DNA of 64,000 nt from Escherichia coli (lineage in GTDB: Bacteria > Pseudomonadota > Gammaproteobacteria > Enterobacterales > Enterobacteriaceae): the NCBI RefSeq assembly GCF_044324785.1, contig NZ_CP172127.1. The stretch is one strand, 5' to 3'. Made by a program: the position numbers and the translations under genes. Positions 4,742 through 24,870 of this stretch are shown here, one piece after another; within the stretch, counting starts at the first letter, position 1, and each line of letters opens with the position of its first letter. The notes under the pieces were generated by a model, which saw only the letters and a program-made list of their open reading frames with translations, searched no databases and was not told the DNA's origin.

Positions 4742-7333
4742 ATGCATCAATCTGGTTCTGTTTCTCTTTGTCGTTCCGCAATATCTGTTCTGGTGGCTAC
4801 AGCGTTATATTCACCCATAGCATTGGCATCAACTGTTGAGTATGGTGAGACAGTTGATGGTGTTGTCCTGGAAAAAGATATCCAGCTGGTTTATGGGACC
4901 GCCAATAATACGAAAATCAATCCTGGCGGAGAACAGCATATAAAAGAATTTGGTGTAAGTAGTAATACTGAAATTAACGGAGGGTATCAGTACATTGAAA
5001 TGAATGGCACCGCAGAATACTCAGTATTAAATGACGGTTATCAAATTGTTCAAATGGGTGGCGCGGCAAACCAGACTACCCTCAATAATGGTGTGCTACA
5101 GGTTTATGGCGCAGCGAATGATCCCACGATTAAAGGCGGGCGCTTAATCGTTGAAAAAGATGGGATTACCGTCCTTGCCGCTATCGAAAAGGGAGGATTA
5201 CTGGAGGTTAAAGAGGGGGGATTAGCGATTGCGGTAGATCAGAAAGCAGGCGGTGCGATTAAAGCAAGCACGCGGGTCATGGAGGTATTCGGAACAAACC
5301 GTCTCGGTCAGTTCGAAATCAAGAATGGTATTGCTAACAATATGCTGTTGGAAAACGGCGGAAGTTTGCGAGTTGAAGAAAATGACTTCGCTTATAATAC
5401 CACTGTGGATAGTGGCGGCTTACTGGAGGTTATGGATGGCGGGACTGCAACTGGCGTTGATAAAAAAGCAGGCGGAAAATTAATTGTCTCAACGAATGCG
5501 CTGGAAGTGAGTGGTACAAACAGTAAAGGCCAATTTAGTATAAAAGATGGTGTGTCAAAAAATTATGAACTGGATGATGGTTCCGGGCTCATTGTTATGG
5601 AGGACACGCAGGCCATTGACACTATCCTTGATGAGCATGCCACTATGCAATCGCTGGGAAAGGATACTGGGACGAGAGTGCAGGCAAATGCGGTATATGA
5701 TCTCGGTCGATCAGATCAGAATGGAAGTATCACGTATTCCTCAAAAGCCATCTCTGAAAATATGGTTATCAACAATGGCCGCGCTAACGTCTGGGCTGGC
5801 ACAATGGTTAACGTTTCAGTCAGAGGGAATGATGGCATTCTTGAAGTCATGAAGCCGCAAATAAATTATGCGCCCGCAATGTTGGTGGGTAAGGTAGTGG
5901 TTTCTGAGGGCGCTTCTTTTAGAACGCATGGTGCCGTGGATACCAGCAAAGCGGATGTTTCGCTCGAAAATAGCGCATGGACCATCATTGCCGATATCAC
6001 TACGACGAACCAAAACACCCGCCTCAATATAGCCAACCTTGCGATGTCTGGCGCAAATGTGATTATGATGGCTGAGCCAGTGACTCGTTCATCTGTGACG
6101 GCAAGTGCGGAAAATTTCATTACGTTGACCACTAATACCCTGTCGGGAAACGGCAATTTTTATATGCGTACCGATATGGCCAATCATCAGAGCGATCAGC
6201 TCAACGTGGCCGGACAGGCAACAGGTGATTTCAAAATATTCGTGACGGACACCGGTGCCAGCCCGGCAGCAGGAGATAGCCTTACACTGGTAACAACGGG
6301 CGGCGGTGATGCTGCATTTACGTTGGGCAATGCCGGAGGCGTTGTTGATATCGGTACGTATGAATATACCTTGCTGGATAATGGCAACCATAGCTGGAGT
6401 TTGGCAGAGAATCGCGCGCAAATTACCCCTTCAACCACTGATGTGCTGAATATGGCGGCCGCACAACCGCTGGTATTTGATGCAGAACTGGACACCGTGC
6501 GTGAGCGTCTTGGTAGCGTAAAAGGCGTTAATTACGATACGGCGATGTGGAGTTCGGCAATTAACACCCGCAACAACGTGACCACTGATGCGGGAGCTGG
6601 CTTTGAGCAAACATTGACGGGGCTGACGCTCGGTATCGATAGCCGTTTCTCCCGTGAAGAAAGCAGCACAATTCGCGGCTTGTTCTTTGGTTACTCTCAT
6701 TCTGATATTGGTTTTGATCGCGGCGGCAAAGGCAATATTGATAGCTACACCTTGGGGGCTTATGCCGGTTGGGAGCATCAGAACGGTGCCTATGTTGATG
6801 GGGTGGTGAAAGTTGACCGTTTTGCCAACACCATCCATGGCAAGATGAGTAATGGGGCAACAGCGTTTGGCGATTACAATAGTAACGGCGCGGGTGCTCA
6901 TGTCGAGAGCGGGTTCCGTTGGGTTGACGGATTGTGGAGTGTTAGACCCTATCTCGCCTTTACCGGCTTTACCACAGATGGTCAGGACTACACGTTATCA
7001 AACGGCATGCGCGCGGATGTGGGAAATACCCGGATATTACGCGCTGAAGCGGGAACGGCGGTAAGCTATCACATGGACCTGCAAAACGGTACGACGTTGG
7101 AACCCTGGCTGAAAGCCGCCGTGCGTCAGGAATACGCCGATTCTAACCAGGTGAAAGTTAATGACGATGGCAAATTTAATAATGATGTGGCTGGAACCCG
7201 TGGCGTTTATCAGGCTGGGATAAGGTCATCGTTTACCCCGACGTTAAGCGGTCATTTGTCTGTCAGCTATGGCAATGGCGCAGGGGTAGAATCACCGTGG
7301 AATACTCAGGCGGGTGTGGTCTGGTCGTTCTGA
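4742..7333 (+). CDS. yejO: Autotransporter (type Va) outer-membrane protein, adhesin-like
   Basis: 863 aa; N-terminal signal peptide, Gly/Asn/Thr-rich repetitive passenger, C-terminal beta-barrel region ending in aromatic residue (…VVWSF). Confidence 0.85.
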   Translation: MHQSGSVSLCRSAISVLVATALYSPIALASTVEYGETVDGVVLEKDIQLVYGTANNTKINPGGEQHIKEFGVSSNTEINGGYQYIEMNGTAEYSVLNDGYQIVQMGGAANQTTLNNGVLQVYGAANDPTIKGGRLIVEKDGITVLAAIEKGGLLEVKEGGLAIAVDQKAGGAIKASTRVMEVFGTNRLGQFEIKNGIANNMLLENGGSLRVEENDFAYNTTVDSGGLLEVMDGGTATGVDKKAGGKLIVSTNALEVSGTNSKGQFSIKDGVSKNYELDDGSGLIVMEDTQAIDTILDEHATMQSLGKDTGTRVQANAVYDLGRSDQNGSITYSSKAISENMVINNGRANVWAGTMVNVSVRGNDGILEVMKPQINYAPAMLVGKVVVSEGASFRTHGAVDTSKADVSLENSAWTIIADITTTNQNTRLNIANLAMSGANVIMMAEPVTRSSVTASAENFITLTTNTLSGNGNFYMRTDMANHQSDQLNVAGQATGDFKIFVTDTGASPAAGDSLTLVTTGGGDAAFTLGNAGGVVDIGTYEYTLLDNGNHSWSLAENRAQITPSTTDVLNMAAAQPLVFDAELDTVRERLGSVKGVNYDTAMWSSAINTRNNVTTDAGAGFEQTLTGLTLGIDSRFSREESSTIRGLFFGYSHSDIGFDRGGKGNIDSYTLGAYAGWEHQNGAYVDGVVKVDRFANTIHGKMSNGATAFGDYNSNGAGAHVESGFRWVDGLWSVRPYLAFTGFTTDGQDYTLSNGMRADVGNTRILRAEAGTAVSYHMDLQNGTTLEPWLKAAVRQEYADSNQVKVNDDGKFNNDVAGTRGVYQAGIRSSFTPTLSGHLSVSYGNGAGVESPWNTQAGVVWSF

Positions 7334-22998: not shown

Positions 22999-23178
22999 GA
23001 TTCCGTTAATTTCCTGAAATTACGACAACATTTAAAAGATAACAATGACCGGACTATAGCCTGGATCAAGACGCGGAAACATCATTTTCTCTGATGAATG
23101 AAAACAAAAAAGCACTGCCTAAGCAGTGCTTTCAGTTAACTCGTCAGGATAGCCAAGGGATTGCATCCAAACGGTTTA

Positions 23179-23745
23179 TTAGCTGCGGCTGAGAACCCGG
23201 CGTGCTTCGTTGTAACGCTTCTTCCAGTACGGTTCATTCATGCTGGAAATAATAACACCACTGCTGGTGGAAGCATGGACAAACTGATTGTTGCCGATAT
23301 AAATACCGACATGGCGTCCCGTTGAACCGGCACGGAACAGAACTAAATCACCCGTACGCAAATTACTGCGGGAAACAGATTTACCCATTTCCTGCTGTTC
23401 GTAAGTCGAACGCGGAAGTTCTAAGCCAAATTGCTCACGGAATGTACGCTGTACGAAACCAGAACAATCGATACCTTTTTTAGTGCTGCCGCCCAGACGA
23501 TAGCGTACGCCTTTCCAGTCAGCATACTGATCCATAATTCGCGATTTTACGTCGACATTACGAACCAGGTTTTCAAATTCATCCTGAGAAGCTTGCAGTG
23601 ATGATGTTTCACTACCCACTGCACGTGTCTCAGGATGCATATTCTTTGCGGTGTTATTTGCACTACATGCAGAAAGCAGAACCGCTACTGCAATCGCGGG
23701 AATCCCGCGCAAGATATATCTCAAAATCGGTTGAGATTTGACCAT
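23179..23745 (-). CDS. mepS: NlpC/P60 peptidoglycan DD-endopeptidase lipoprotein MepS (Spr)
   Basis: 188 aa, lipobox (LSAC), catalytic Cys in the DCSGF motif. Confidence 0.9.
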
Positions 23746-24156
23746 GTTGTTTGTTTTCCCTTGAAGTCCTTAACGACAAATATCGTTATAAAAAAATGCC
23801 AAGCGACATGAGACTAATTACCTGGGCATGTTGAAACAATTCCTTAAGGCCAAATCTGTGGACTAACGCACAAAATTATATGCTGTGAGGATAATCTACC
23901 GCCGAGGCAAAACGAGTTCGAGATTACCCGATTGGTGCGGTCTTGGCGAGCGGTTTTACATGATTTTTTATAAGAAAAAGTGATACAGAAAGTTAATAAA
24001 CGGGATTGGTCAATTAAAGTACGATTGAGTGAAACGCATGCAATCCATTCATTTACTTAGAGAATGATTTTTACGCGCGATGGATGAAAGCACGGTGCGC
24101 ATCATCAGGATTATCCTCACTATAAAAATAACCCTGATGATGTTAATTACTGTGAG

Positions 24157-24870
24157 TTATTTGTTTTGGAAATGTTTGTTTTTTCCCGGTAGTGATTTGT
24201 CAAAAAAGGTGATTAATCGATCACTTAATGGCGTCAGCAACACCCAGGGCAAACCGATCAATATCACGGTCATCGAACCGACAATGATGTCAGTAAACCA
24301 GTGTGCGCCAATCATTACTCTGGGAAACGCAAAAACCACAAAAATAATAAGGGCGATAAGGCCTGCAACTTTGCCGAAATAACGCCACATGAATGCCGAA
24401 AAAATAAGCAGCATCATACCGTGATCGCCGGGAAAGCTATCTCGTGAGGCATCTTTCGTGGGAACAGAGAGCAGTTCGCTGACGCGGTTAATATCGGTAA
24501 AAGTCAATGTTGGGCTGGCCCGTTTTACAGGAATTAATGCCTGACCCAGCTGGTTTAATACCACTGCAGTTAATAGCATGACCAGACCAATAATCACGAT
24601 ACGTCGTCTGCCTGGGGCGTTTTCTTTCAGCCAGAAACTCAGCATCAACATTCCCATCGCCAGCAGTGAACAACCGTCGAAAGCGCGATTGTTGGTCAAT
24701 GCAACCAGCCACAAAAAGGCCTTACTTTCGACCAGTTTCTGATTAAAGAAATAAAAAATATCCGCATCAATCGGCAACCAGAATCCATGATTAACGGGTA
24801 TATACCAGGAAAGAAACAGCGCGAGGCCGACAATATTCAACAACACTATTTGCGGCAAATTTTTAATCAT
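24157..24870 (-). CDS. lpxT: Lipid A 1-diphosphate synthase LpxT (PAP2 family)
   Basis: 237 aa from internal Met (MIKNLPQ); multi-TM PAP2-like. Confidence 0.85.
   Translation of the reverse strand: MIKNLPQIVLLNIVGLALFLSWYIPVNHGFWLPIDADIFYFFNQKLVESKAFLWLVALTNNRAFDGCSLLAMGMLMLSFWLKENAPGRRRIVIIGLVMLLTAVVLNQLGQALIPVKRASPTLTFTDINRVSELLSVPTKDASRDSFPGDHGMMLLIFSAFMWRYFGKVAGLIALIIFVVFAFPRVMIGAHWFTDIIVGSMTVILIGLPWVLLTPLSDRLITFFDKSLPGKNKHFQNK

Follow-up and report, generated by a model that had tools for sequence, protein, structure and literature searches.

What is the inverted repeat that lies between lpxT and mepS in Escherichia coli, and to which of the two genes does it belong? The original prediction for the 64,000-nucleotide stretch of E. 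coli DNA analyzed here (the window) described a 10-bp inverted repeat with a 23-nt spacer just 3' of lpxT, in a noncoding interval of roughly 400 bp. RefSeq, in its annotation of identical E. coli DNA, places both neighboring genes on the minus strand, with mepS at 23179-23745 and lpxT, which encodes Kdo2-lipid A phosphotransferase, at 24157-24870. The interval between them is 411 bp long (23746-24156), close to the length first given. The arms proved exact: catcatcagg (24100-24109) and cctgatgatg (24133-24142) are complementary at 10 of 10 positions and enclose 23 nt (24110-24132). A repeat search widened the arms to 15 nt (24100-24114 and 24128-24142), with 93% complementarity (one mismatch) and 13 nt between them. 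In the lpxT sense, the repeat starts 14 nt after the stop codon. This gap (CUCACAGUAAUUAA; 24143-24156, minus strand) contains an AAUUAA(C) motif that is kept in many genera (conservation of 0.7 to 0.8 over AATTAAC in the alignment described below).

The element is present throughout the species and has no existing annotation in E. coli. A 501-bp query across the site matched 5425 of 5426 complete E. coli genomes at 95 to 100% identity, and the median number of places per genome was one (5425 genomes). An origin in a repeat family or a mobile element was ruled out, as the element is single copy. An Rfam scan of the region at a permissive threshold gave only chance-level matches to eukaryotic families (E ≥ 0.18), and the same kind of scan on six homologous loci found no family. 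The exact pattern of the two arms occurred once in the window, against 0.01 occurrences expected per shuffled window. Perfect inverted repeats in general (10-nt arms and a 3- to 30-nt spacer) were also in excess, with 11 observed and about 1.9 expected per 64 kb, so the inverted repeat on its own is suggestive at most. A chance repeat is an unlikely candidate, and chance origin was ruled out by the fold z-scores, the covariation, and the mapped RNA 3' end reported below. The ten further perfect inverted repeats in the window (arms of at least 10 nt and spacers of 3 to 30 nt) are centered at 4843, 7410, 7581, 10891, 14233, 23120, 30018, 46636, 56951, and 56968. Of these, the repeat at 23120 corresponds to the mepS terminator.

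Folded as RNA in the lpxT sense, the repeat becomes a much longer structure. The minus-strand RNA of 43 nt (CAUCAUCAGGGUUAUUUUUAUAGUGAGGAUAAUCCUGAUGAUG; 24100-24142), delimited by the fold, the repeat search, and a covariance model, forms 20 uninterrupted pairs, four of them G·U, around a 3-nt loop (24120-24122). Its predicted free energy is -23.7 kcal/mol (z-score of -7.3 for the 43-mer and -4.8 for 76 nt). The plus-strand fold is weaker (-14.2 kcal/mol) and consists only of the outer 10 bp and a 4-bp segment; the inner stem of E. coli pairs as RNA on one strand only. The repeat that was first noticed is the outer 10 bp of this 20-bp stem. As DNA, the 10-bp arms stand as described, but as minus-strand RNA, the element is a 20-bp stem with a 3-nt loop and not a 10-bp stem with a 23-nt loop.

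In one respect, the hairpin is placed as in a canonical intrinsic terminator, as a stable stem-loop shortly past a stop codon (14 nt after that of lpxT). The 7- to 8-nt U-rich tract that should follow directly 3' of such a stem was not found. The tail 3' of the stem (CGCACCGTG) has one T in 9 nt, with a maximum of three T's per 8-nt window; the CGCACCGUG tail of the E. coli stem is G+C rich with no U-tract, and a terminator scan of the window region called nothing at the hairpin site. The original prediction had judged the repeat not to be a clear intrinsic terminator for want of a T-run, and this judgment is borne out by the tail and by the scan. The 8 nt past the stem (CGCACCGU) would give a strong RNA:DNA hybrid, which would be unfavorable to intrinsic release, and the G+C-rich tail argues against efficient release of this kind.

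Mapping of the lpxT 3' end had been proposed as a check, and a published Term-seq data set provides it. In MG1655, where the hairpin is identical, an RNA 3' end was reported at 2269627 (plus strand) in LB at an optical density (OD) of 0.4, with an average read count of 1323 and the class "orphan" (Adams et al. 2021 eLife, PMC7815308, supplementary file 1). The end was detected in one of three conditions, being absent from the LB OD 2.0 and M63 lists (PMC7815308). The flank printed for it is ATTAACATCATCAGGG...CCTGATGATGCGC|ACCGTGCTTT (PMC7815308). With the end of lpxT at 2269567 in MG1655, the position converts to 24097 (minus strand) in the window, which is 3 nt beyond the stem base on the lpxT sense strand (...GAUGAUG-CGC-3'). 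The end was classed as an orphan solely because it is 60 nt from the lpxT stop codon. The transcript ending at the hairpin is that of lpxT, and in E. coli, it is the hairpin that sets where this RNA ends at steady state, 3 nt past the base of the stem. A 3' end inside a U-tract some 7 to 9 nt past the stem, as expected of a canonical intrinsic terminator, was not seen at this position (+3, in CGC). What was seen, a precise steady-state 3' end directly after a stable U-less stem-loop, is the defining property of the class described by Dar and Sorek (2018, PMC6061677).

The same data set contains other ends nearby, all on the minus strand of the window (PMC7815308). One lies 4 to 6 nt before the mepS ATG (23749/23751; MG1655 2269975/2269973) and was scored as not Rho dependent. 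Another is inside mepS (23588; MG1655 2270136), and a further one is at the canonical mepS terminator, ...GCACTGCTTAGGCAGTGCTTTTTTG (23104; MG1655 2270620).

Could the hairpin still be working as a noncanonical intrinsic terminator? The 20-bp hairpin alone, perhaps with NusA or NusG, would then release RNA polymerase, and the +3 end would be the primary product, either as released or after the loss of a few nucleotides. A weak rU:dA hybrid is a requirement in established models of intrinsic termination, and primary products normally end in the U-tract, 7 to 9 nt past the stem and not at +3. The tail described above, with its single T in 9 nt and its G+C-rich tract, and the silence of the terminator scan fit poorly with such models. 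In favor of this reading are the precision of the 3' end and its closeness to the stem, and canonical terminators occur as orthologues in other genera (see below). The published table of Rho termination regions also has no entry for the lpxT-mepS spacer (MG1655 2,269,4xx-2,269,9xx), a list whose power is limited here by the low expression of lpxT (PMC7815308, supplementary file 2). Some U-poor cases are perhaps inefficient intrinsic terminators that are backed by Rho (Dar & Sorek, PMC6061677). We regard continued intrinsic termination as unlikely, although it deserves serious consideration.

We then compared 80 species-representative Enterobacteriaceae loci (L003 to L082) that were fetched through MepS. 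In 79 of the 80 loci, lpxT was found upstream of mepS by tblastn, and the spacer between them had a near-constant length of about 411 to 416 bp. The sole locus without a tblastn LpxT match upstream of mepS was a Pluralibacter metagenome-assembled genome (L077), the spacer of which aligns, hairpin included; this exception may reflect lpxT loss, divergence, or an assembly problem. In the alignment, a hairpin occupies the same position 3' of lpxT in nearly all 80 loci. Its typical form is CATCAGGGATCG-TTTT-CGATCCCTGATG, and the outer stem CATCATCAGG/CCTGATGATG is common to Citrobacter and E. coli (CATCATCAGGG...CCCTGATGATG). In the MAFFT register, 79 to 80% of cells in the 12-pair core were paired, compared to at most 50% when the partners were slid. 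Compensatory double changes were present at all 12 core pairs of the MAFFT alignment, amounting to 101 cells versus 34 ± 5 in shuffles (87 versus 29 ± 4 without Escherichia). The 62 well-aligned loci had 51 distinct stem sequences. In Salmonella arizonae, Kluyvera, Siccibacter, and Atlantibacter, the arms switch together to unrelated sequences with their complementarity kept. Conservation of the interval had been named as a second check on the repeat, and the hairpin is indeed kept, with compensatory changes, across the Enterobacteriaceae.

Structure prediction on the alignment gave a consistent picture once one sequence was removed. RNAalifold predicted no structure from the raw 81-row alignment because of one grossly misaligned row (L053), and it recovered the stem after this row was dropped. 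A covariance model built from 76 non-Escherichia sequences had its only match in the window at 24079-24150 (minus strand). The match was full length, at 20.2 bits and an E value of about 0.09 (marginal, and from a rough calibration), with all 12 modeled pairs standard and a 12-nt loop insertion. By syntenic position and by the covariance model, the sequence at 24100-24142 belongs to a conserved lpxT 3' hairpin of the Enterobacteriaceae. Wobble asymmetry across genera was uninformative (57 G·U versus 52 A·C pairs in the stem). With no excess of G·U over A·C pairs, the strand was assigned from the Term-seq end, from the side that carries the T-runs, and from the fold asymmetry specific to E. coli.

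The pattern of substitutions bears directly on whether the repeat acts as DNA. A dyad-symmetric operator, bound by a regulator of lpxT or mepS, would account for a DNA dyad that is perfect over 10 bp and lies upstream of mepS, and the left arm (CATCAGGG) is widely conserved. An operator should conserve its half-site sequence over its complementarity, and this was not observed, given the double changes at 12 of 12 pairs. Instead, the arms change in concert with complementarity kept, the spacer from arm to arm ranges from 3 to 23 nt, and in E. coli, only one strand, as RNA, can pair in the inner stem. The site also has a mapped RNA 3' end and is 186 nt from the start of the distal mepS promoter (see below). 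We therefore find an operator highly improbable. The original prediction had left the choice between an RNA processing or stability element and a protein-binding site; the Term-seq end and the covariation favor the former, and the preservation of complementarity rather than of half-sites speaks against the latter.

Variation within Escherichia was concentrated in the inner part of the stem. Every Escherichia sampled retains the outer 10 bp, and among sampled E. coli, these pairs are invariant apart from one C-to-U change that preserves a G·U pair. The inner stem varies: position 11 is polymorphic in E. coli (G, T, or C) and is an A in E. albertii. This variation is relevant to a possible role as an RNase III processing site, in which the duplex would be cleaved for lpxT mRNA stability or to part lpxT RNA from read-through RNA running on into mepS. 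A helix of about 20 bp is close to the minimal RNase III substrate, and the K-12 helix, with 20 contiguous pairs or about two helical turns, is unusually long for a terminator stem. Against this role, many E. coli strains are mismatched at stem position 11, the E. albertii loop is 9 nt, and the homologous stems of other genera are only 10 to 13 bp. The mapped 3' end also lies outside the stem. Taken with the helix length in its favor, these observations make an RNase III site very unlikely in our view.

The comparison also covered the presence of a U-tract after the stem. We defined a T-run as at least 6 T's in the 8 nt after the stem (a register-based count), and 19 of the 80 loci had one. 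Among the bearers, which belong for the most part to genera further from E. coli, were Kluyvera (...GCCCTCTGAATGTTTTTTTT), Klebsiella, Siccibacter, Atlantibacter, Buttiauxella, and Cedecea. Among the 80 loci, no T-run followed the hairpin in Escherichia, Salmonella, or Citrobacter, and it was absent from most Enterobacter. When the loci were divided by MepS identity to E. coli, a T-run was present in 3 of 42 loci at 89% identity or above and in 16 of 38 below. The terminator scan called canonical terminators at the hairpin position in L062 and in Klebsiella pneumoniae (L069). Canonical T-run terminators of other genera are thus homologous in position to the E. coli element. The U-tract was probably lost rather than gained in the E. 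coli group, as far as a crude ranking by identity, rather than a tree, can indicate. A change of this type was anticipated by Dar and Sorek, who predicted that terminators switch class by changing their U content (Dar & Sorek 2018, PMC6061677).

To which gene the hairpin belongs depends on where mepS transcription starts. The gene has two promoters, and the OxyS binding site is at G37-G47 in the short mRNA and at G146-G156 in the long one (Elgrably-Weiss et al. 2024, PMC10798246). With this numbering mapped to -24 to -14, and with conservation taken into account, the start sites are most likely at -60 (P1, ~23805) and -169 (P2, ~23914). By the same reasoning, the distal promoter P2 (23914-23949, minus strand) would have its -35 element, TCGCCA, at 23949-23944 and its -10 element, TAATCT, at 23926-23921. 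The hairpin is 186 nt upstream of this probable P2 start and for this reason belongs to the lpxT 3' untranslated region (UTR); it would be outside every known mepS transcript. The repeat had been placed in the long mepS upstream region, and while its position in the interval is correct, its assignment changes to lpxT. The interval had also been considered unusually long for a gene-dense region, and its length is explained by the two promoters of mepS (leaders of 60 and 169 nt) together with a strongly conserved upstream region.

The hairpin sequence itself has an embedded resemblance to a promoter. A sigma-70 promoter, TTAACA N16 TATAGT, would match 10 of 12 consensus positions at 24146-24119 (minus strand), overlapping the hairpin, and would give mepS a leader of ~365 nt. 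This is one match where 2.7 are expected in shuffles of the region, and neither E. albertii nor other genera keep the -10 element. The published mepS promoters are only two, with starts that we place at -169 and -60 from the numbering of Elgrably-Weiss et al. (PMC10798246). We give this promoter next to no credence.

Past the hairpin, the spacer differs in conservation along its length. The ~40 nt directly past the hairpin are the most variable part of the spacer, even among E. coli strains, and the distal two-thirds are mostly strongly conserved. The ratio of C to G downstream of the stem is mild over the first 100 nt (1.2 to 1.6) and reaches 2.6 to 3.0 at 65 to 165 nt. The C-over-G stretch at 23937-24036 (minus strand; 26% C and 10% G), a weak feature defined by composition only, may suit a Rho-loading (rut) site, and it coincides with the conserved DNA that precedes mepS P2. 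A block in this part of the spacer, AACTTTCTGTATCAC-N5-TTCTTATAAAAAATC (23962-23995, minus strand), is nearly invariant across the 80 Enterobacteriaceae species. It is at about -48 to -81 relative to the probable P2 start, ~215 to 250 nt upstream of mepS in L003 to L082, and is followed by the conserved -35 (TCGCCA) and -10 (TAATCT) elements. The block looks like an UP element plus a putative regulator site. We also considered a 12-codon open reading frame, MNGLHAFHSIVL (24050-24012, minus strand), which starts within the conserved patch AAATGAATGGATTGCATG. Salmonella, Citrobacter, and Phytobacter do not keep its frame or its stop codon, and it is probably not a gene.

Overall, we think it probable that the inverted repeat is the 3'-terminal stem-loop of the lpxT (yeiR-lpxT) RNA, a former intrinsic terminator that is without its U-tract and now fixes and protects the mRNA end. 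The ancestral element would have been a canonical intrinsic terminator, with the U-tract left intact in more distant Enterobacteriaceae; in the group of Escherichia, Salmonella, Citrobacter, and Enterobacter, the U-tract would have gone and the hairpin been retained. In E. coli, transcription would stop downstream in the untranslated spacer, either through Rho or through inefficient hairpin-assisted release. By analogy with the transcripts of Dar and Sorek (2018), 3'-to-5' exonucleases (PNPase and RNase II) would then trim the RNA back to the stable stem, which would in turn shield the lpxT mRNA. As a by-product, the stem would help to keep upstream transcription out of the mepS promoter region. 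Weighing against the model are the small size of the Term-seq peak, its listing in a single condition of three, the mild C-over-G skew directly past the stem, and the lack of an entry for this spacer in the published table of Rho termination regions.

This model draws on E. coli Rho-dependent transcripts whose precise ends directly follow stable U-less stem-loops, which are barriers to PNPase and RNase II (PMC6061677). Such transcripts terminate diffusely further downstream of the stem-loop (Dar & Sorek 2018, PMC6061677). The lpxT element shares with them a stable stem-loop directly before a precise 3' end, the lack of both a U-tract and an upstream A-tract, and an untranslated stretch past a poorly expressed gene with some C-over-G bias after it. 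It differs from the stem-loops of that study in that Rho dependence and exonuclease trimming are assigned to lpxT by analogy. The lpxT stem is also longer than typical (20 bp) with an AU- and GU-rich inner half, and the lpxT data additionally include canonical-terminator orthologues in other genera. The E. coli element resembles a canonical intrinsic terminator in having a hairpin and in its placement 14 nt past the stop codon, and its homologues in Kluyvera, Klebsiella, Atlantibacter, Siccibacter, Buttiauxella, and Cedecea are true terminators, but it has no U-tract and its 3' end is at +3 in CGC. REP elements and BIMEs are likewise extragenic palindromes at mRNA 3' ends that can block exonucleases; in contrast to these, the lpxT element is single copy, has no REP consensus, and is conserved in position across genera.

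A more elaborate role would follow if the hairpin were a tunable gate, that is, a duplex sensitive to RNase III or to another factor that sets the amount of yeiR-lpxT read-through into the mepS regulatory region and that selection kept after the U-tract was lost. We consider this very doubtful. If true, it would couple lipid A modification (LpxT) to the expression of a peptidoglycan endopeptidase (MepS), and the strict synteny of lpxT and mepS and their ~411-bp spacing would reflect that coupling.

The lpxT 3'-end hairpin is an ordinary element of a known type that had previously gone unannotated, and it would not surprise a specialist. Its recognition assigns an "orphan" Term-seq end to lpxT and supplies the absent annotation of a hairpin in the lpxT 3' UTR. 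When the lpxT-mepS spacer is engineered or deleted, positions 24097-24142 should be assigned to lpxT rather than to the mepS promoter region. For the family as a whole, the orthologues form a series, from a U-tract terminator in some Enterobacteriaceae to a 3'-end hairpin lacking a U-tract in E. coli and closely related species, that is a clean example of the class switching proposed by Dar and Sorek.
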